From a virus (taxonomy: Duplodnaviria; Heunggongvirae; Uroviricota; Caudoviricetes): a DNA stretch of 44,656 nucleotides. A program made the position numbers and the translations under genes. The stretch is from IMG/VR virus record IMGVR_UViG_3300045988_024106; one strand, 5' to 3'. Below the pieces are notes generated by a model. It made no database searches, was not told the DNA's origin, and saw only the letters and a program-made list of their open reading frames with translations. How positions within the stretch are numbered: position 1 is the first letter of the stretch; every line of letters starts with the position of its first letter. Positions 86 through 44,656 of the stretch are shown one piece after another.

Positions 86-108
86 CCCCTTTCGGGGCCT
101 TAGTTTTA
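76..108. terminator. Bidirectional rho-independent terminator between convergent genes
   Basis: A-run, GC hairpin gcccc-tttc-ggggc (85-98), then T-rich tail; sits between the end of the plus gene (stop at 75) and the stop of minus CDS 106..1272. Confidence 0.7.
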
Positions 109-1272
109 TGCGTAGGTGATACGCTGGATAACAATAGACGACTGGTACTGATTGCCAGTAGCCTGACCTTCAATGGACTGAGTGATTGACTCAGGTCCGC
201 CAATCTCTGGTGTTACCGCTGTAAGCTCTGCGCGTTTCAAACTGAAAGACATAGCTCCGTTTACCCCCGCCAGAATAGAGTTAATCTCTACCTGCTGCTC
301 GTTGATAAACTTCTGAATCATCGCCATGTCATACAGCTTACCGGAGATGGAGAAGGTGTTAGCCGCGCGGCTACGCTCCACAAATGCTACGCTAGTGTTA
401 CCAAGTTCGAACTGCGCGGACGCGCTGTTGTCGTTGGTGATGGTGAGGCTGTCGCAGCGCAACGGCGTAGAACCATCGAACACGGAAACGTCAACCGAGG
501 AGAACGGCTCGTCACCAAACGTAACAGAGGAGAAATCAGAACCAGACGGCGGCTCGGTGAGAATTTCCTGGCTACGCCCGATGAACGGGAAGCTGCCAGT
601 TACCATCGCGTTAACCGCCTGTTCAACGGTAAAACCAGAAACTTCCACGCCTTTGGTAAGCGTGTACGCGGCAGTCCCGCCACATTGGCCTTTGTACCAG
701 GTGAGAATAGAGAACGTCTTACACTGGCTACCCGTCTCCAGCTTATCCCCGGTCTTAGCCGCGGTAGTGGCAGTCTCTGTGGTCAAAGTGTGCTGGATAC
801 CGGCACCGGTGACAACAGTTGCGCTTACCTCGGTTACGATAAACGGTTTGGTGTTATCACCGGTTAAGTCGGTAAACGCAATCAGGTCGCCTACTTCCAC
901 ACCGTCAGTAATAAAGCTGCCATCAGCACGGGTGAACGTCTTGCCCGCCGGTGCGACGGTAATTGACAGGTCAGTCAAGGATACACCTGATTGCCACGTA
1001 GAGCCTAAAGCACCCGCCAGCCAGTCGTCCTGGCTTTTCGAGCTTAGCTCGATAGCGTATTCACCGCTAACCTGTTTGTTACCGGTGCGGATGGATGTAG
1101 TTTCACGGCTGCCGTCCAGTTCGTTGGAGGTCAGCGTGTCGCGGGTGATGGCGGGAACACCGCCAGTGTTACGCAACGGCGACCAGACAGGGTTAGTCGG
1201 TGTTACGCCCGGGGTGACTTCCGCCACATAGAATTGCGCGGTAGTCGCGCCCTTAAAAGGAGTTGTAGCCAT
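106..1272 (-). CDS. Major tail (tube) protein, putative
   Basis: 388-aa ORF; ATG at 1270-1272 preceded by AAGAGG (track start at 1278 is GTG); last gene of the head-tail shaft operon, followed by a strong terminator; Thr/Gly-rich structural composition. Confidence 0.55.
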   Translation of the reverse strand: MATTPFKGATTAQFYVAEVTPGVTPTNPVWSPLRNTGGVPAITRDTLTSNELDGSRETTSIRTGNKQVSGEYAIELSSKSQDDWLAGALGSTWQSGVSLTDLSITVAPAGKTFTRADGSFITDGVEVGDLIAFTDLTGDNTKPFIVTEVSATVVTGAGIQHTLTTETATTAAKTGDKLETGSQCKTFSILTWYKGQCGGTAAYTLTKGVEVSGFTVEQAVNAMVTGSFPFIGRSQEILTEPPSGSDFSSVTFGDEPFSSVDVSVFDGSTPLRCDSLTITNDNSASAQFELGNTSVAFVERSRAANTFSISGKLYDMAMIQKFINEQQVEINSILAGVNGAMSFSLKRAELTAVTPEIGGPESITQSIEGQATGNQYQSSIVIQRITYA

Positions 1273-1274
1273 AT

Positions 1275-1688
1275 TCACAGCCTCTTGGTGAATGCAATAA
1301 AGTTAATTGACAATGGCCGTTTGGCCCATCCGTTTTCTACAATCAGCGGCCCCAGGCTAACCGATTGAACCTCGGCGCAGATGTCGTTACGTGAAAATGA
1401 CTTGCCTGCTTTAAACGCCGTGTTAAGTAAGTCTGCCATTTTATTGATTGGCGCGCTACCTTTCGCCGATGCGTAGTTAATGTCGACCTGATAGATACCA
1501 GAGCGTTGCTCGGTGAAGAACAAATCCGCCTGTTCCGTATCCGCCAGCAACATGTAACTCGCCAGATACGGCGTATCTGTTGACGTCGGCGCGTCGATGT
1601 TTTCAAGCGCAACCTTGATGCCGTTTGCGTTCCCGAAGGCTACCAACGGCACATCAAACGCTTTGGTTAAGTCCTCAAAGTAGCCCAT
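1275..1688 (-). CDS. Tail completion / tail terminator-like structural protein
   Basis: 137-aa ORF immediately upstream of the major tail gene, coupled to its neighbours; assigned by position only. Confidence 0.45.
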   Translation of the reverse strand: MGYFEDLTKAFDVPLVAFGNANGIKVALENIDAPTSTDTPYLASYMLLADTEQADLFFTEQRSGIYQVDINYASAKGSAPINKMADLLNTAFKAGKSFSRNDICAEVQSVSLGPLIVENGWAKRPLSINFIAFTKRL

Positions 1689-2083
1689 TATTTCACCTTG
1701 TTGGCTTCTTCATTAATGAGTTGCTGGAAGCGAGACACGTTAGTCCTGACCATCCCGGCGGGCGCTTGCTGCGACCAACCATACTCCAGTCGTTGTGCAT
1801 ACGGCAGATTATTTGTCAGCGTGAACTCGCGCCAGTCGGTGGCTTTCAGTACGAAACCTGTAGCGTTTCCGATTGCTATGTTTCCTGATTTATCCGTAGC
1901 GTCCGTAATCCCGGAAGCAGGAGTACCGCCAGATGCCATCCAGTTCATACGAAATCGGCCTGTATCTACCGGACTCGCCTTTATGATAGCGGAAAACAGC
2001 TTGATAGACACCTGACGCATCACCTTCTCTGGGTTCTTCTTCGCCTTTTCCACGAACTTAGAGACATCAAGCGCGAAACTCAT
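1688..2083 (-). CDS. Head-tail connector protein (HK97 gp10-like neck protein)
   Basis: 131 aa; contains VDTGRFRMNW, resembling the HK97 gp10-family signature; position between head and tail genes. Confidence 0.5.
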   Translation of the reverse strand: MSFALDVSKFVEKAKKNPEKVMRQVSIKLFSAIIKASPVDTGRFRMNWMASGGTPASGITDATDKSGNIAIGNATGFVLKATDWREFTLTNNLPYAQRLEYGWSQQAPAGMVRTNVSRFQQLINEEANKVK

Positions 2084-2439
2084 TTTCTCACCTGGATAAA
2101 GTATGCCACGACATCATCGTTAACCATCTTCTTCTCAATGGCTACGACAGACCATTGCTCGCCGCCGAATTGCACCTTGTCTTCCATCTTCGGTACAACA
2201 CTGCAATCCGCTTTAACAATCATGTCGCCAGCCTGAATCGTCGTACCGTTTACCAGTCCCGCGTTTACCGGAACCGGAACCGCCTTCAACGGCAACACTT
2301 CATCCGCAGACCAGACGTACTCACCGAGAACTTCATCCCACACTTTCGAGCCAGCACGAACCAGAGATACCGTGCTACCGAATTTGGTTAGCAGACGTGT
2401 ACCCACGCCTTGCATACGTTTACTGAAAGCGGTGCTCAT
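2080..2439 (-). CDS. Head-tail adaptor / head completion protein, putative
   Basis: 119 aa from ATG at 2437-2439 (RBS AGGTG); the track ORF 2080..2520 begins further upstream at a non-ATG codon; position in the connector cluster. Confidence 0.4.
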   Translation of the reverse strand: MSTAFSKRMQGVGTRLLTKFGSTVSLVRAGSKVWDEVLGEYVWSADEVLPLKAVPVPVNAGLVNGTTIQAGDMIVKADCSVVPKMEDKVQFGGEQWSVVAIEKKMVNDDVVAYFIQVRK

Positions 2440-2533
2440 TTTAACACCTCTTGCAGCGTCAAAAGAACACCGTAACTGTGCAAGACTACCGCGGTAAGAA
2501 AACCAAAAACTAAACCACATGCGAACTTATTCA

Positions 2534-39173: not shown

Positions 39174-39655
39174 ATTCGTGGAAACGTTGATTGCGCGGTT
39201 CCGTAGGCTTTAAGGAAACATCCCAGCCCATCACCATAGCAACCATACAAGTCCGGCAGATTGTTAACAAGGCACTGGTTCTCAAGGTTCTGGAACGGCG
39301 ATTTCTCTGCGGTTGCCGTGAAAGTAATAGTCCAGTTGACCCCGTCTTCGGTGGACTCGGCGATGGTTGACGTGATTGTTACCTGATAATCCTCAATACC
39401 CATTCCGAAGTCATGCGCCATCCAGAAACTTGACGCACCGCCGTCTACTTTTTCGAGGAACGACAGAAACGCCTGCCGCCCCAGCGCCGATGTAATCAGG
39501 GTTACGCTTATTGGGAACACGTCGTAATACGTGTCGCGACCCTGACGCACCCCGCCACCGGCTAAATCAACGCTCCAGACGTTGTTACGTCTGGTCATTG
39601 AGTAGCCTTTTGACACCACCGGCTTAAGGCTACGTGGAAAAAATAAGTCAGTCAT
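39155..39655 (-). CDS. Minor/distal tail protein (gpM-like), putative
   Basis: 166-aa ORF immediately downstream of the tape measure gene; assigned by position. Confidence 0.45.
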   Translation of the reverse strand: MTDLFFPRSLKPVVSKGYSMTRRNNVWSVDLAGGGVRQGRDTYYDVFPISVTLITSALGRQAFLSFLEKVDGGASSFWMAHDFGMGIEDYQVTITSTIAESTEDGVNWTITFTATAEKSPFQNLENQCLVNNLPDLYGCYGDGLGCFLKAYGTAQSTFPRIWDPMQ

Positions 39656-41943
39656 TATTTGAACCCCGGCGCATTTCTTGTGGCCTTTCGGGCCTTGCTA
39701 ATCTTACTGTTGCTGTTCTGCAAAGAGGCAGCCACTTGCTCTTCGATGATGATACGCAAACGGCCTTCATCATCTTGTTCAGTGGATACGTTGCCAATCT
39801 GACTCGATGTGTTATTTACGATGGTAACATTAGATGGGCCAGAAGAAGACCCGTTTTGCCCCATAATTTCTTTCATCTGCTGCGCGGTGCGCACACGCGA
39901 TGCGCCAGCGGGCATGATAACTTCGGGTTTACCACGTTCAGCGATAGTAGAAGCCTGCCCCGCGGATAACTGACCGCCCTGTTCACGCGCGGACCTGATA
40001 GCGGAAATCTGCGCCATACCCGCCCCAACGGCTGCGGCAGCGGCTACAGGGGCAAGGAACGGACCAACAATAGGGATAGCCGCCGTAGACTTGTACGCCT
40101 CAATAGCTGCGGTGTACGTGGCTATAGTGGCCTGTACGATAGCGAATGCTTTATACGCACCAGAAGCCTCGCCCAACGCAGACCCGATGTTTGAAGCCAT
40201 GTTACCAAAGGCGGTTGCTGTTGCGTCGGCACGTTTCGTGGCGTACTGCTCGTTGATGGCGTTAAGCGCGGCCTGATACTGCGTCTCACTAATCAGACCC
40301 TGCTCACGGTACTTATCCGCCACCGCCAGTTTCTGCTGTTCCTGGATGTCGAGAAGCTCAAGCTCAGTAGCGTTCTGGCCCATAATCTGAGCCATGAAGT
40401 CGTCACCTTTCTGCTGCTTTTCCTGGGCTTCTTTCTGGCGTTTATCCAGTTCATCTTGGCGTTTTTGCCCTGCTTCAAGGACGATAGCTGTTTTAGCTTG
40501 TTCGTATTCTTTCAGAGACAACGCGCCCTGTCTGTAGAACTCTTTTGCCTTAGCCAGTTTCTGCTGTTCCTGAGCGTCAATAGCCTTTAACTCGTCGTTG
40601 TTCTGACGGGCTAAAGTGTCGAGGTAATCCTGCGCCTGTTTACGCAGTTGCTCCGCTTTCTTAGCGGCGGCTTTCGCGTCTTTGTCGTCGGCGTTTCCGG
40701 TGCCGCCAGTTCCGCCCTTTTTATTAACAAGGCTGGCTAAGTCAATTTCTTGCTTCTTGCGCTCGTCATACTGCTTGCGCTGTTCCTCAATTTCTTTCTT
40801 ACGCTGCTTAGACCTGTTGGTGATGGCCTGTGATTCGGCCTCTGCGCGTTTTATGCTGGCGGCGTATGCGGCGTCAGCCTCTGCGGTCAGGTTTTTAAAT
40901 GTGAGTGCTGCCGTTTTGCTCGGGTCAAACACGTCAGCGAGGGTCTGTCCTAACGCTACGGCATAATCGTCAATGCGCTGGAACCACGCAATAACCTCAT
41001 GGAATGTCTGCTGGATGTCAGGCAACCACTCACGGATAGCGTCCGGTATAGTACCCAGCGAGTCGGACATGTCCGCGGATTTGTTCTCGGTGTCATATGC
41101 CAGGTCGTTCAAAGCGTCAGAAATAAACTTGAACGACTCATTGAACAGTGTCACCCAATCCTGGAGTGTGGCGGCTATCTCATTAGACGCGATGGCATCA
41201 GTAAGCGCCGTGATAGCATCTTCCGCCCTCGCAGCTTGCTCACCTACTGCGTCGCCGAAACCTGATTGCGCCACCGCAAGTACAAGGCCGTCAAAGGAGT
41301 CCGCCAGGCTCGACAACTGACCATCTAATGTCTTAGAGCGCGTCTCCATTGCCCCGGCGAAATCCGTGTTGCCGATGTTCAGAAGGTATTTCTGAATCTC
41401 TTCGGAGTTCTTTTTAACAGTAGTCGTTACGCCGCGGAACGTGAACGAAACCGTATCCGCCTGTTGCGACGACTTGATACCAAACTCTTTCAGTCGCTCA
41501 AACTCAAAGGTACTGGCGTCCGCCACGGCCTCAATCATCTGATTAAGGTCTTTACCCATCGCAGCGGCGGTGTTGCCGTAGGAGATTAACGCCTCTTTGC
41601 TGGGATTCAGGCCGAGAGCTACAAGTTTAGTGAAGCCCTCAACAGCCTGGTTAAGGCCGTATGGGGTCTCTTTTGCGAACTGTTGCAGGACGCTGAAAGC
41701 CTTAGCGGCATTCTCGGCACTCCCGGTCATCGTGATGAGGCCGGAGTTCAGCTTGTCGAAGTTTCGCTGGGAGTCCACCAGCGCACTGAACACCTGTTTG
41801 GCGGTTTCCAGACTGACGACGGCGGCTGCGGCAGCCCCCGCCGCCTTAGTGAGCCCGTTCAGTTGTGATGTGGTTTTATCGACGCCGGTCGATGATACTC
41901 GTACTATCAAGCTAGCGGTATCAGCCATGATTTCTACCTTCAA
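39655..41943 (-). CDS. Tail tape measure protein
   Basis: 762 aa; long Ala/Gln/Glu/Lys-rich predicted helical protein; downstream of the G/T chaperone pair. Confidence 0.8.
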   Translation of the reverse strand: MKVEIMADTASLIVRVSSTGVDKTTSQLNGLTKAAGAAAAAVVSLETAKQVFSALVDSQRNFDKLNSGLITMTGSAENAAKAFSVLQQFAKETPYGLNQAVEGFTKLVALGLNPSKEALISYGNTAAAMGKDLNQMIEAVADASTFEFERLKEFGIKSSQQADTVSFTFRGVTTTVKKNSEEIQKYLLNIGNTDFAGAMETRSKTLDGQLSSLADSFDGLVLAVAQSGFGDAVGEQAARAEDAITALTDAIASNEIAATLQDWVTLFNESFKFISDALNDLAYDTENKSADMSDSLGTIPDAIREWLPDIQQTFHEVIAWFQRIDDYAVALGQTLADVFDPSKTAALTFKNLTAEADAAYAASIKRAEAESQAITNRSKQRKKEIEEQRKQYDERKKQEIDLASLVNKKGGTGGTGNADDKDAKAAAKKAEQLRKQAQDYLDTLARQNNDELKAIDAQEQQKLAKAKEFYRQGALSLKEYEQAKTAIVLEAGQKRQDELDKRQKEAQEKQQKGDDFMAQIMGQNATELELLDIQEQQKLAVADKYREQGLISETQYQAALNAINEQYATKRADATATAFGNMASNIGSALGEASGAYKAFAIVQATIATYTAAIEAYKSTAAIPIVGPFLAPVAAAAAVGAGMAQISAIRSAREQGGQLSAGQASTIAERGKPEVIMPAGASRVRTAQQMKEIMGQNGSSSGPSNVTIVNNTSSQIGNVSTEQDDEGRLRIIIEEQVAASLQNSNSKISKARKATRNAPGFK

Positions 41944-42187
41944 AGATTGCTTCTAAGCCCATGATAATGTCTATCTCGAACAGACTAAGCTGCTTTTGCG
42001 TAACATCGAGATAGGCTTTCAGGTCTTGCCACGTAACGGATTCTCTTGCAAACAATACTACAGCGTCCTCGCGCACGTGTCGCGTAAACTTAATGTCGCA
42101 ATACGTCTCAAAGGTGGATATAAAAAGGGGTGGACATTCTGGCCCACCCCGTCGCGCTGCACGTTTTTTCTTATCGATTACACCCAT
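41921..42187 (-). CDS. Tail assembly chaperone T-extension (likely made as a G-T fusion by -1 frameshift)
   Basis: ORF in the -1 frame relative to G; manual translation shows this frame open from before the G stop (42286-42288) through to 41921. Confidence 0.5.
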   Translation of the reverse strand: MGVIDKKKRAARRGGPECPPLFISTFETYCDIKFTRHVREDAVVLFARESVTWQDLKAYLDVTQKQLSLFEIDIIMGLEAIFEGRNHG

Positions 42188-42285
42188 CGCGATAAGCGCC
42201 TGTTCGTGTCCGTCAGCTATAGAATCAAACTCTCTGATTTTATGTTTATCAACGAACTCGTAGGTGGCGAACCTGTACAGCGCGT

Positions 42286-42702
42286 CTACTTTTCCTGTAA
42301 TGCTTTACGCTCAGCGTTATGGAACGCGGCCACCTGTGTGCCTAATGCCTTGAACTGGTCGAGCAATTTGTTAAACGCTTCCTTAGAGAAAGGCTCATCA
42401 AAGCTCCAGCCGTTTACGACTTCCGCCGCGAGTTGTCGGTTGAGGTCTTCCGCCAGTTCGTTAACCGCCAGGTTATATTCAGTGTAGTCACCAGATTCTT
42501 TGGCGGCTTTTTCCAGTTCTTCAAAACGCGCCAAGCCGCGGCGATACGCGATAATGAAAGCACGCCCCGCTTTAACGGCGGCATCCGCATCCGGATTTAC
42601 AACGTTAAGCCACTCACCGGAGTCTTCGCCATTCGGCAGCAGAATCGGCATCTTCTTGCCTACCAGTGCTTTCTCTTCGAAATAGAAATCAGAAAGTTTC
42701 AT
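42286..42702 (-). CDS. Tail assembly chaperone (gpG-like)
   Basis: 138-aa acidic protein directly upstream of T and the tape measure; RBS AAGGA; G-T architecture. Confidence 0.6.
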   Translation of the reverse strand: MKLSDFYFEEKALVGKKMPILLPNGEDSGEWLNVVNPDADAAVKAGRAFIIAYRRGLARFEELEKAAKESGDYTEYNLAVNELAEDLNRQLAAEVVNGWSFDEPFSKEAFNKLLDQFKALGTQVAAFHNAERKALQEK

Positions 42703-42809
42703 TCTTTAATCCTTTGGTTAAGAGGTTACGGGTTAATGGTAAATGCGCCAGACGGGAACCACCCGCTTTTCGTGTGCGACACTAGGCGCAAAATTATTCT
42801 ATCACATTA

Positions 42810-42843
42810 CTTGCAGACCCCAATATAATAGGGTACTATTCAC
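42810..42843 (+). promoter_or_regulatory. Promoter/operator box (P-box) for the moron island
   Basis: cttgcagaccccaatataatagggtactattcac; TATAAT plus palindrome AATAG-ggta-CTATT; upstream of the Imm-like gene. Confidence 0.6.
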
Positions 42844-42869
42844 TTACACCATCAATGAAGGGGTTTAAA

Positions 42870-43061
42870 ATGTCAAGTTTACCAGTTTCCTTAATTCTGT
42901 TTGCACTGCTCGCTTATTTCGCGCCTTTCCTGGTTGCGTACTTCCGTAACCATAAAGCGAAGTTGGCAATATTCATGGCCAATCTGTTTCTTGGCTGGAT
43001 TCTGCTGCCGTGGGTATTTATCTTAATCTGGGCGTGCAACTCGAATGTTAACGAGAAGTGA
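42870..43061 (+). CDS. Superinfection immunity protein (Imm_superinfect-like small membrane protein)
   Basis: 63 aa from ATG at 42870 (RBS GAAGGGG); AYFAPFLVAYFRNHKAKLAIFMANLFLGWILLPWVFILIWA matches the family pattern (..RNHK...IF.LNL.LGW...W..ALIWA). Confidence 0.6.
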   Translation: MSSLPVSLILFALLAYFAPFLVAYFRNHKAKLAIFMANLFLGWILLPWVFILIWACNSNVNEK

Positions 43062-43098
43062 GCTAGTATAGGACAAATCCTAAACACGAGGAATAAGC

Positions 43099-44229
43099 AT
43101 GGCCCGGAAGAAAATAACCGACGAACAGTTGCAGGAAGAATTGAACGCCGGCATGAAGAATATCGACATCGCCCGTAAATACGGCATATCAGACCGCGTT
43201 ATTCGTATTCGTAAAGCGAAGCTGGCTAAGAAAGGCGTAGGCCACGGGCGTGACGTTAGCCACCTTGTGCCAGACGGCTACAAGATTAAAGGCACGTCGT
43301 CACTTGTGGACGAGTTCGGCAACACTAAGTTGCAATGGGTTAAGACCGATACTGACGCCGAACGTCAGATAGAGTTGATGAAAGCCGTAATCGAAGGCAT
43401 GAAGTCAGAGATTACACCCGTTGCACCTGTTAAAGCCGTTCGCGCTAAACGCGACGACAAGCTACTCAATCTTTACACGGTATCTGATTTCCATCTCGGT
43501 ATGCTGGCATGGGCCGACGAGAGCGGCGACGACTGGGACATGAAGATTGCGGAAGACCTGTTCTCCCGCTGGTTCGATGCGGCGTTTCAGAAAGCACCGG
43601 ATGCGGGAACAGGGGTTATTAACCTGCTTGGTGATTTCGCGCACTTCGATAGTCTGGATGCCGTTACGCCAGCGAGCGGTCATGTTCTTGATGCGGACAC
43701 ACGCTACCAAAAGCTAGTCCGCTACATGATTCGTATGGTGCGCCGTGTTATTGATACGGCCCTCGTTAAGCATAAAAATGTTCGCTTGCTTATCGTGCAA
43801 GGGAACCACGACGAAAGCGGAATGATTTGGTTGGCTGAGATGTTCAGTACACTGTACGACAATGAGCCGCGTGTGTTCGTCGATACGTCGCCGGATGTTT
43901 ACAAGATGGTGCAACACGGCAAAACTACACTGTTCTTTCACCACGGGCATAAGGCGCGATTCGACGCTATCGAACCGGTAATGATTGCTAAGTTCCGCAA
44001 AGCGTTCGGAGAGAGTGTTTACAGCTACGCCCACGTAGGCCACCTGCACCATCAGAAGATTGTAGAAAGCCGTAACATGATTGTTGAGCAACACCGAACC
44101 TTAGCGGCTAAAGACGCCTATGCCTCACGCGGCGGTTGGATGTCAGGGCGCAGTGCAAATGTAATTACTTATAGCGCCGAATATGGTGAGGTTGCACGTT
44201 TAACTATTTCACCGGAGATGCTGGGATGA
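43099..44229 (+). CDS. HTH-domain / calcineurin-like metallophosphoesterase fusion protein
   Basis: 376 aa; N-terminal HTH-like NIDIARKYGISDRVIRIRK; phosphoesterase motifs D-x-H (VSDFHLG), GD (LLGDFAHFD), GNHD/E (VQGNHDE), HHGH and GHLHH. Confidence 0.65.
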   Translation: MARKKITDEQLQEELNAGMKNIDIARKYGISDRVIRIRKAKLAKKGVGHGRDVSHLVPDGYKIKGTSSLVDEFGNTKLQWVKTDTDAERQIELMKAVIEGMKSEITPVAPVKAVRAKRDDKLLNLYTVSDFHLGMLAWADESGDDWDMKIAEDLFSRWFDAAFQKAPDAGTGVINLLGDFAHFDSLDAVTPASGHVLDADTRYQKLVRYMIRMVRRVIDTALVKHKNVRLLIVQGNHDESGMIWLAEMFSTLYDNEPRVFVDTSPDVYKMVQHGKTTLFFHHGHKARFDAIEPVMIAKFRKAFGESVYSYAHVGHLHHQKIVESRNMIVEQHRTLAAKDAYASRGGWMSGRSANVITYSAEYGEVARLTISPEMLG

Positions 44230-44426
44230 AAGACATGTATGAATGCACCGATGTGAGTCCGTACGCGGAGAAAAATGGATTCGAAGTAGGTGCTGTATAT
44301 GAAGGGGTCACCCTAGAGAATGGCGATGTAAGAATGTATTCGCCTAAATATCGCAGCTTCTTTGAAATAGGCAACATTAACGAGTCAGGCATAGCCAGAT
44401 TTAAGAGAGTTAACAGTGACAAATAA
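44226..44426 (+). CDS. Hypothetical protein
   Basis: 66-aa ORF; ATGA overlap with the upstream stop. Confidence 0.4.
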   Translation: MKDMYECTDVSPYAEKNGFEVGAVYEGVTLENGDVRMYSPKYRSFFEIGNINESGIARFKRVNSDK

Positions 44427-44646
44427 ATACAACCGCACAATGACAAACACTCACGGCAGCACTATGACAGTAGACGTTTATGACGTGCTACGTGCTTTCG
44501 ACATCCGCGACCCGGCGTTACAGCACGCATTGAAGAAGCTATTGTGTATGGGCCTTCGCGGGCACAAAGATACGGAAACCGACTTAGCGGAAGCAATTGA
44601 AAGCCTGGAGAAGTTACGGGAGTACCGAAGTAATATTGATGAGTAA
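44416..44646 (+). CDS. Hypothetical protein (runs into the terminal duplication)
   Basis: 76-aa ORF (GTG at 44416; alternative ATG at 44440); 3' end lies in the 85-bp repeat and is followed by terminator 76-108. Confidence 0.4.
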   Translation: MTNKYNRTMTNTHGSTMTVDVYDVLRAFDIRDPALQHALKKLLCMGLRGHKDTETDLAEAIESLEKLREYRSNIDE

Positions 44647-44656
44647 GAAAAAAAAG
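44572..44656. repeat. 85-bp terminal duplication (copy of 1-85)
   Basis: Exact identity with window positions 1-85. Confidence 0.9.

Follow-up and report, generated by a model that had tools for sequence, protein, structure and literature searches.

The locus described here raises the question of how T, the second of two tail assembly chaperone reading frames in a tailed phage, is translated. The window is the whole stretch of DNA that was analyzed, 44,656 bp in length (IMG/VR record IMGVR_UViG_3300045988_024106). It is collinear over its full length, in reverse orientation, with Escherichia phage K1ind2 and, from this comparison, corresponds to the whole genome of a Kagunavirus (a K1ind/K1G-like E. 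coli siphophage of the Guernseyvirinae). The 1-kb region containing G and T is 94–96.5% identical to many Kagunavirus genomes (K1G, K1ind1–3, RP180, and others), and E. coli is the presumed host, judging from 96%-identical E. coli phages. The geometry of the open reading frames (ORFs), the conservation of the slip motif, the frozen synonymous sites, and a covarying RNA helix were computed in this work. We consider it likely that G and a G-T fusion protein are both produced from one mRNA by programmed -1 frameshifting on the tetramer A_AAG, probably boosted by the helix.

Reading Frames and Protein Family

The features of the coding region are listed below.

42286..42702, minus strand: gene G, tail assembly chaperone, 138 amino acids, 15.5 kDa, the product of standard decoding (from the ORF list and translation)
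41921..42289, minus strand: T segment in the -1 frame, 122 codons plus stop, with a first codon GTA that re-uses the G of AAG
42289..42292, minus strand: slip motif A_AAG, the last base of GAA plus the AAG lysine codon, invariant in 126 distinct loci
42294-42289, minus strand: hexamer GAA_AAG, the slip motif plus the preceding codon
42286..42288, minus strand: zero-frame stop TAG of G, directly after the slip codon, which supplies the TA of the first -1 codon GTA (Val)
42305..42307, minus strand: TAA of the -1 frame, upstream of which a slip could not yield G-T

As stated in the original prediction, G ends in CAG GAA AAG TAG on the minus strand with its stop at 42286–42288, the overlap is read A-GGA-AAA-G in the -1 frame, and T is open in that frame from before the G stop (42304 to 41921). 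The -1 frame reads TAA (42307–42305) AGC ATT ACA GGA AAA GTA GAC GCG CTG and remains open until the TGA at 41923–41921. Because the upstream TAA bounds the open frame, only five codons permit a productive -1 shift. The predicted G-T fusion contains 260 amino acids with a mass of 29.55 kDa.

The two proteins had been proposed from the sequence to be a G/T tail chaperone pair, and this assignment is supported by profile comparisons and by the tape measure gene that follows directly. G matches Pfam PF08748 (Phage_TAC_4) with 27 bits (cutoff of 21.1), and T matches Pfam PF23812 (Phage_TAC_18) with 67.6 bits (E = 1e-18, cutoff of 27). The 259-position profile of PHROG 15027 spans both proteins, with G at positions 1–138 (E = 1e-71) and T at positions 138–259. 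A tblastn search with T returned matches in 494 phage records, 492 of which cover at least 80% of the query, and among the 60 matches listed all but one begin at residue 1.

The G-T frameshift itself is not new, as it has been annotated already. A joined "tail assembly chaperone" coding sequence over exactly this span is present in the RefSeq/GenBank records of K1ind2, fFiEco02, and Shemara. Fusion proteins were built in silico by a slip of tRNA-Lys from AAG to AAA and compared with the deposited proteins of these three phages. The constructed fusions of the relatives are residue-for-residue identical to ADA82419.1/YP_009597354.1 (K1ind2), YP_010749005.1, and YP_010582519.1, and the junction derived for the window (...QEK-VDAL...) is the same as in the deposited fusions of close relatives. 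The junction lysine of ...ALQEK-VDALYR... is a trypsin cleavage point. The annotators of Kagunavirus, Jerseyvirus, and Cornellvirus genomes disagree, and T is called a separate or hypothetical gene in some records and is joined to G in others.

Conservation of the Slip Site

Loci were gathered from GenBank (9), IMG/VR (80), metagenomes (70), and a genome collection (1), with protein identities of about 40–100%. They span Kagunavirus, Jerseyvirus, Cornellvirus, the Serratia phages Eta and Tsm2, and environmental relatives. There were 79 usable IMG/VR loci and 63 distinct metagenome loci. Site tallies were made on the 126 distinct loci in which the slip-site pattern matched; L025 (an incomplete locus) and L086 (stop one codon later) stand outside this tally. 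Codon usage was compared among 27 representatives with less than 90% nucleotide identity. T is in the -1 frame relative to G in 78 of the 79 usable IMG/VR loci and in all 63 metagenome loci, the exception being L024, in which G is interrupted. The same geometry was found when the 9 GenBank loci were read directly. Judged from these sequences, the -1 arrangement of G and T is not a product of chance.

An alignment with the G-T sites of related phages had been suggested as a check, and in that alignment A_AAG is invariant in the 126 distinct loci. The codon before AAG is GAA in 87 loci, GCA in 22, GTA in 9, GGA in 3, AAA in 3, TCA in 1, and CAA in 1, such that its third base is always A. The stop directly after AAG is TAG (88 loci), TAA (37 loci), or TGA (L133 only). 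A_AAG with an adjacent stop is found in 77/79 IMG/VR loci and in 63/63 metagenome loci. In L086, A_AAG is kept within AAG TTA TAG, where one sense codon precedes the stop. TGA was absent from this position in the first 31 clusters, but a rule to that effect was refuted by L133, a metagenome locus, and only a bias remains. The loci with the only TGA (L133), the only displaced stop (L086), and a helix arm GCGCTC with a local partner at approximately +36–58 (L134) are rare natural variants.

Four codons around the junction are frozen in the 27 representatives. K138 is AAG in 27/27, V139 is GTA in 27/27, A141 is GCG in 27/27, and L142 is YTG in 27/27 (CTG in 22, TTG in 5). In contrast, the invariant lysine K205 is encoded by AAA in 20 and by AAG in 7, and the synonymous codons are thoroughly mixed at about 40 other columns with an invariant amino acid.

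The slip site had been called noncanonical. This description stands in that no canonical X_XXY_YYZ heptamer was found in the overlap of the window, where the zero-frame site is G_GAA_AAG. It does not stand for the conserved unit A_AAG (or NNA_AAG), which is an established bacterial motif (PMC5009743, PMC4066793). The pattern of conservation indicates that the signal is the bacterial A_AAG tetramer (NNA_AAG hexamer) and not a degenerate heptamer. Only the slip of tRNA-Lys is conserved, because the tRNAs for GCA, GTA, and TCA in the peptidyl site (P site) cannot re-pair in the -1 frame. The codons GCA, GUA, and UCA are read by tRNAs with cmo5U34.

No Shine-Dalgarno-like or purine-rich stimulator is conserved across the lineages 10–14 nucleotides (nt) upstream of the motif, where sites of the cdd, dnaX, and IS911 type carry one. 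An AGGA abuts the slip site in the window and is missing in most clades. Transcriptional slippage was considered and rejected, as the A-runs are only 3–4 nt long in most lineages, which is too short for this process.

Start Codons for T

Independent initiation of T at an internal ATG had been named as an outcome that would refute the frameshift.

42185..42187, minus strand: internal ATG, Met35 of the T part, located in the conserved block GHxxALIAMG and not a conserved start

This possibility fails on comparison. Met35 is replaced by Ile (ATC) in 8 of 36 clade B sequences, the residues upstream of it are conserved as protein, and no Shine-Dalgarno-like sequence is found upstream of this ATG in the window. 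The residues F145, A146, F159, D160, I162, G165, H166, and L170 all precede Met35 and are invariant while their codons vary synonymously; the stretch between the G stop and Met35 is thus translated in the -1 frame. The YTG codon located six bases after the G stop (L142) is CTG in 22 of the 27 representatives. As far as the compared sequences go, T is without a conserved start of its own. Conservation places the start of T translation no finer than "at or before L142", since V139 and A141 could be fixed for nucleotide reasons alone. A slip, rather than a T start elsewhere, is favored because A_AAG itself is conserved.

A Long-Range RNA Helix

The frozen GCG and YTG codons lie just downstream of the stop, and the sequence downstream of the slip site was searched for complements of GCGYUG. 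The two arms of the helix predicted for the window are as follows.

42275..42284, minus strand: 5' arm (CGCGCUGUAC), 4 nt after AAG in the window and 5 nt in most relatives (from the frozen GCG/YTG codons, RNAalifold, and covariation)
42153..42162, minus strand: 3' arm (GUGCAGCGCG), which closes a loop of 112 nt and lies in the variable T linker (...KRAARR...)

The partner recurs at +133 in clade A (the window, K1ind-type Kagunavirus, Jerseyvirus, and others) and at +204/+207 in clade B (Cornellvirus, Eta/Tsm2, fFiEco02-type phages, and others), where the loop is about 186 nt. The extended duplexes contain 10–14 bp with predicted free energies of -15 to -24 kcal/mol. Compensatory changes are seen in pairs of arms such as GCGCTGTATGAATT/AATTCATACAGCGC, GCGCTGTTGAAAT/ATTTCAACAGCGC, GCGCTGCATAAATT/AAATTTATGCAGCG, and GCGTTGTTTC/GAAACAACGC. 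Unguided RNAalifold runs on sets of 37 and 36 sequences recovered exactly the same helices in both clades.

The helix of clade A contains 11 pairs, with 86.7% of the cells paired versus 17–51% when the partner is slid. Its covariation score is 0.267 versus 0.147 in shuffles (reached by 0/500), and both sides change at 5 pairs. For the 14 pairs of clade B, 93.1% of the cells are paired versus 21–53% with a slid partner, the covariation score is 0.138 versus 0.093 in shuffles (0/500), and both sides change at 4 pairs. The helix of clade B is the longest conserved helix of the whole G-T region. In 28 of 30 representatives, the core pairs with an ensemble probability of 0.75 or more. Both the minimum free energy and the centroid structures of the window contain the helix 42284–42275/42162–42153. 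The stems are reproduced in the metagenome set, in approximately 56 of 63 loci as counted by eye, and most of the others are incomplete contigs.

The two clades differ in the coding context of the 3' arm. In clade B it encodes K-F-I-Q-R (AAA TTC ATA CAG CGC), where every wobble base is paired to the first base of a codon for A-L-Y-E-F; this accounts for the freezing of synonymous positions in both arms. The linker that holds the arm in clade A varies as protein (KRAARR, EETTQD, ERTARE, and others), and CA-RCG-C is kept. The spacing of the 5' arm from A_AAG is constant in all lineages, and the 3' arm is found at +133, at +204/+207, or, in L134, at a local position of approximately +36–58. A fixed 5' arm with a mobile 3' arm is as expected if the position relative to the slip site matters.

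A local hairpin or pseudoknot within 75 nt downstream of the slip site was rejected: RNAalifold on 23 representatives gave -0.06 kcal/mol, and z = -0.84 was obtained for the window. No match to the Rfam families of frameshift elements (dnaX, IS1222, and others) was found at E values up to 10 between 41800 and 42800, and the helix is unmarked in the database records and Rfam models that were checked. Other apparent conserved helices in G-T, found in an all-against-all column scan, were rejected as artifacts of TTYGAR (Phe-Glu) codon pairs, which are self-complementary for any synonymous choice. These include 42114–42107 with 41944–41937 and 41980–41975 with 41944–41939 (minus strand) and represent a source of false covariation in coding alignments.

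A terminator-like element is located within the T ORF at 42150–42117 (minus strand), 3 nt after the 3' arm. It consists of GGGGTGGGCCAGAATGTCCACCCC followed by TTTTTATATC and encodes G-G-P-E-C-P-P-L-F-I. The GGGC...GCCC core is invariant in clade A, where the Gly is fixed as GGG, and many clade B phages carry GGGGCC-NGAN-TGCCCC followed by TTAATTTTT. The count of terminator-like matches in the region is not above shuffle expectation. The element could act in pausing or attenuation, belong to the frameshift structure, or be a coincidence of the coding sequence.

Proposed Mechanism and Alternatives

We infer from these data the occurrence of the shift, its rate, the timing of the slip, and the stimulatory role of the helix. 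Most ribosomes would translate ...GAA AAG and stop at the TAG that follows, releasing G with 138 amino acids. A minority would slip back by one base as the single E. coli tRNA-Lys (mnm5s2UUU) leaves AAG and re-pairs with AAA. The next codon would then be GUA, and the 260-residue G-T fusion (...ALQEK-VDALYRF...) would be made. By analogy with lambda, this fusion would serve as a bridge, with its G part on the tape measure and its T part on the major tail subunit. The weak intrinsic slipperiness of A_AAG is most likely raised by the long-range helix, whose 5' arm begins 4–5 nt after AAG. With AAG in the aminoacyl site (A site), the base of the helix would sit at the mRNA entrance of the ribosome, about +11/+12 counted from the P-site codon. 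This is the usual position of a -1 stimulator. During the wait for release at the adjacent stop, tRNA-Lys may have a second chance to slip, now from within the P site. The stop would also keep the T region almost free of ribosomes, such that a helix with a loop of 112–186 nt can re-form.

The published properties of the motif are consistent with this proposal. Among the 16 tetramers compared in E. coli, A_AAG shifts most readily, with a frequency near background when alone (approximately 0.15%) and of 5.6% with the IS3 pseudoknot located 5 nt downstream (PMC4066793). AAA and AAG are both read by a single tRNA-Lys in E. coli, and the efficiency of NNA_AAG depends on wobble-prone P-site tRNAs (PMC5009743). 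We put at about even the chances that the helix is a genuine stimulator and thus that the Guernseyvirinae possess a three-part device (A_AAG, an adjacent stop, and an entrance helix), whose 3' arm has been re-sited at least twice with the 5' arm locked to the slip site.

Several observations weigh against a helix-stimulated frameshift. The fold of the window is not unusually stable (z = -0.93 over 149 nt and z = -0.84 for the first 111 nt), and alternative pairings are favored in L026 and L027. The independent compensatory events are few, approximately 3–5 per clade, and the shuffle tests are inflated by the relatedness of the sequences. Both arms lie in coding sequence, so their conservation is partly driven by the protein. 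A helix that closes a loop of 112–186 nt is an unusual stimulator and might serve another purpose. Many GenBank records present T as a separate gene. One genome announcement states that there is "no canonical slippery sequence" (PMC6776780), whereas another paper reports that a slippery sequence is present (PMC6763656). The literature searched for a Kagunavirus or Jerseyvirus frameshift contained no experimental test of the fusion or of its rate.

The adjacent stop suggests a simpler mechanism, in which tRNA-Lys slips from AAG to AAA only in the P site with the stop codon in the A site, and the stop rather than the helix is the stimulator. Single-tRNA slippage in the P site with an empty A site is established (PMC10861913), and a stop adjoins A_AAG in 77/79 and 63/63 loci. 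The stop is the rare TAG, read only by RF1, in 88/126 loci and is TGA only once, though the resulting GTG would still encode Val, and the base after the stop is nearly always A or C in the representatives. L086 argues that the stop is not indispensable: it keeps A_AAG and the 5-nt spacing to GCGCTG, yet a sense codon precedes its stop. The efficient terminator TAA is used in 37 loci, TGA is tolerated in L133, and the frozen GCG/YTG codons and the covarying helix are left unexplained. With AAG in the P site, moreover, the base of the helix would already be approximately 3 bp inside the ribosome. Slippage driven purely by the stop is accordingly rated as unlikely, and it is not mutually exclusive with the favored explanation. 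A slip of two tRNAs on G_GAA_AAG is quite improbable. Here tRNA-Glu on GAA would shift to GGA by forming a G-U pair at the central position as tRNA-Lys moves from AAG to AAA, on a heptamer one base from the G_GGA_AAG of lambda. GAA is the commonest preceding codon (87/126) with a G before it in most of the aligned sequences inspected, so G_GAA_AAG is widespread, and true heptamers are one mutation away in rare relatives (G_GGA_AAG in L019, L108, and L152; A_AAA_AAG in L076/77 and L150). The central G-U mismatch makes for poor re-pairing, and the lineages with GCA, GTA, TCA, or CAA (33/126) cannot re-pair the P-site tRNA, yet they keep the gene arrangement and the helix. Re-pairing in the P site is thus not a conserved requirement.

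The third alternative dispenses with the frameshift. T would be a separate protein, with initiation or reinitiation either at ATG 42187 or at the CTG/TTG that lies six bases beyond the G stop, and the helix and A_AAG would serve translational coupling, mRNA stability, or control of the tape measure. The records of wksl3, Eta, Snoke, Bas74, and EM1 annotate T in this way, with ATG, TTG, or even CTG as the start. In Jerseyvirus the codon is TTG with an AGGA 12 nt upstream, and the invariance of V139 and A141 may reflect a nucleotide constraint (stop and helix) and is no proof of translation. The candidate start is nevertheless CTG in 22/27 representatives, its first base covaries with the helix partner, and most lineages are without a Shine-Dalgarno sequence. 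ATG 42187 is Ile in 8/36 clade B sequences, and the 34 residues that precede it are conserved as protein. Separate initiation gives no reason for an A at the third base of codon 137 in 126/126 loci, nor for AAG over the commoner AAA, and function in lambda needs T fused to G (PMC5009743). This explanation is very improbable, and programmed frameshifting on A_AAG with a candidate helix stimulator is retained as the favored one.

Comparison with Known Systems

The lambda G/G-T system (Levin 1993; Xu, Hendrix & Duda 2004, 2013, 2014) is summarized in PMC5009743. In both systems, two ORFs immediately precede the tape measure gene, and the second, in the -1 frame, has no conserved start of its own. 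The slip, by tRNA-Lys on AAG, falls close to the end of G, and much of the short product but little of the fusion is expected. The lambda heptamer is G_GGA_AAG, whereas only A_AAG is conserved here, with an adjacent stop and a covarying long-range helix. The G gene described here is also apart from the major tail gene, with four opposite-strand genes between them. To our knowledge, the lambda G-T slip needs no flanking stimulator. By analogy, the system would be functionally of the lambda type with a signal closer to the IS3/IS1222-type tetramers than to the lambda heptamer.

The orfA-orfB site of IS3 likewise uses A_AAG with a spacer of about 5 nt to a downstream structure in the same host translation system (PMC4066793). 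Its stimulator is a compact H-type pseudoknot, whereas the helix found here contains 10–14 bp with a coding loop of 112 or about 186 nt and a clade-specific 3' arm, and the gene contexts are unrelated. IS1222 (G_CGA_AAG) and Bacillus subtilis cdd (A_CGA_AAG) share the slip of a single tRNA-Lys next to a P-site codon that is unable to re-pair (PMC5009743). They differ in the preceding codons, and cdd has an upstream Shine-Dalgarno-like stimulator, which is not conserved here. Three properties of this tetramer/hexamer class are seen in the loci compared here: a zero-frame A_AAG in the stretch where a -1 shift gives the long product, no need for P-site re-pairing, and a downstream structure at a distance of about 5–8 nt, for which the helix that begins 4–5 nt after AAG is the predicted stimulator.

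A -1 P-site slippage at a "shifty stop" was reportedly described by Weiss et al. in 1987, and the A_AAA_UGA of potato virus M is an example. The slippery tetramer immediately 5' of the stop is shared with the site described here; the difference is that L086 has moved its stop by a codon. In E. coli dnaX, tRNA-Lys also slips on AAG with a downstream stem 5–6 nt away. The dnaX signal differs in its full heptamer A_AAA_AAG (present here only in L076/77 and L150), its upstream Shine-Dalgarno sequence, its local hairpin, and an efficiency of approximately 50%.

Genome Layout and Other Observations

The gene downstream of T is as follows.

39655..41928, minus strand: tape measure protein gene (PHROG 1538, E = 1e-193; Pfam TMP_3, 38.9 bits, under the 41-bit cutoff)

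The ATG of this gene (41928–41926) overlaps the T stop (ATGGCTGA), and the K1ind2 annotation has the identical 8-nt overlap of T and the tape measure gene. As in lambda-type systems, the G-T pair is directly upstream of the tape measure gene and T overlaps the end of G. Adjacency of G-T to the major tail protein gene was not found in the window; that gene is at 106–1278 (minus strand), across the permutation point from G. Four opposite-strand genes lie between the major tail gene and G (42855–44656, plus strand), and these encode superinfection immunity (Imm), a DNA repair exonuclease, a polynucleotide kinase (PNK), and an ATP-binding protein (ATPase). Because of these intervening genes, G starts its own transcription unit from the divergent intergenic region at 42703–42854.

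A near-threshold match to the Rfam int-alpA RNA (RF02996) was found in the G leader at 42728–42792 (minus strand), with 32.6 bits versus a gathering score of 35.8 and E = 1e-4 over the full model. Weaker matches to RF02996 occur at the equivalent position in Snoke (L005, 198–262), fFiEco02 (L007, 202–246), and wksl3 (L004, 204–248). This suggests a conserved structured leader before the operon of the tail chaperone and tape measure genes.

A second joined (frameshift) coding sequence, the "tail completion or Neck1 protein" ORF14A/B, is annotated in the RefSeq record of K1ind2. Its homologues in the window are at 2520..2080 and 2083..1688 (minus strand). The upstream ORF ends in ...GTG AGA AAA TGA, and the downstream ATG overlaps the stop (ATGA) at 2080–2083. 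The A_AAA tetramer beside the stop bears a formal resemblance to the G-T site. Since the downstream ORF has its own ATG, this pair is more simply read as a case of ordinary translational coupling.

A scan of 185,579 species genomes gave a single match (L161), on scaffold23 (13 kb) of Taishania pollutisoli strain CZZ-1. This short piece of a Bacteroidota assembly contains a Jerseyvirus-like G-T locus with 54% identity and the same CAG GAA AAG TAG site. Phage contamination of the assembly seems more likely than a prophage. A lone match in bacterial genomes fits a virulent phage group.

Implications

The rule of a tetramer plus stop and the helix with clade-specific 3' arms were not found described in the literature searched, which did not cover Anany et al. 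2015. That paper is cited in the GenBank note of Snoke for a "predicted secondary structure" here. We know of no other phage tail chaperone frameshift that has been reported as tuned by long-distance RNA pairing. The general picture of -1 frameshifting is unchanged. A reporter limited to 42280–42310, the region originally proposed for a dual-luciferase assay, cuts off the helix and would probably under-report frameshifting.

The helix would explain why a tetramer of low slipperiness can still reach a useful frameshifting rate. If it does stimulate, the clades provide a natural "arm-swap" series for studying how loop size sets the frameshift rate. For work on recoding, the natural variants comprise seven P-site codons, three stop codons, at least two positions of the 3' arm, and occasional true heptamers. 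The invariant A_AAG with a stop and a helix at fixed spacing is a clear annotation rule for hundreds of genomes. The ratio of G to G-T controls tail assembly in lambda, and the phage group in which the site is conserved is large and therapeutically popular.

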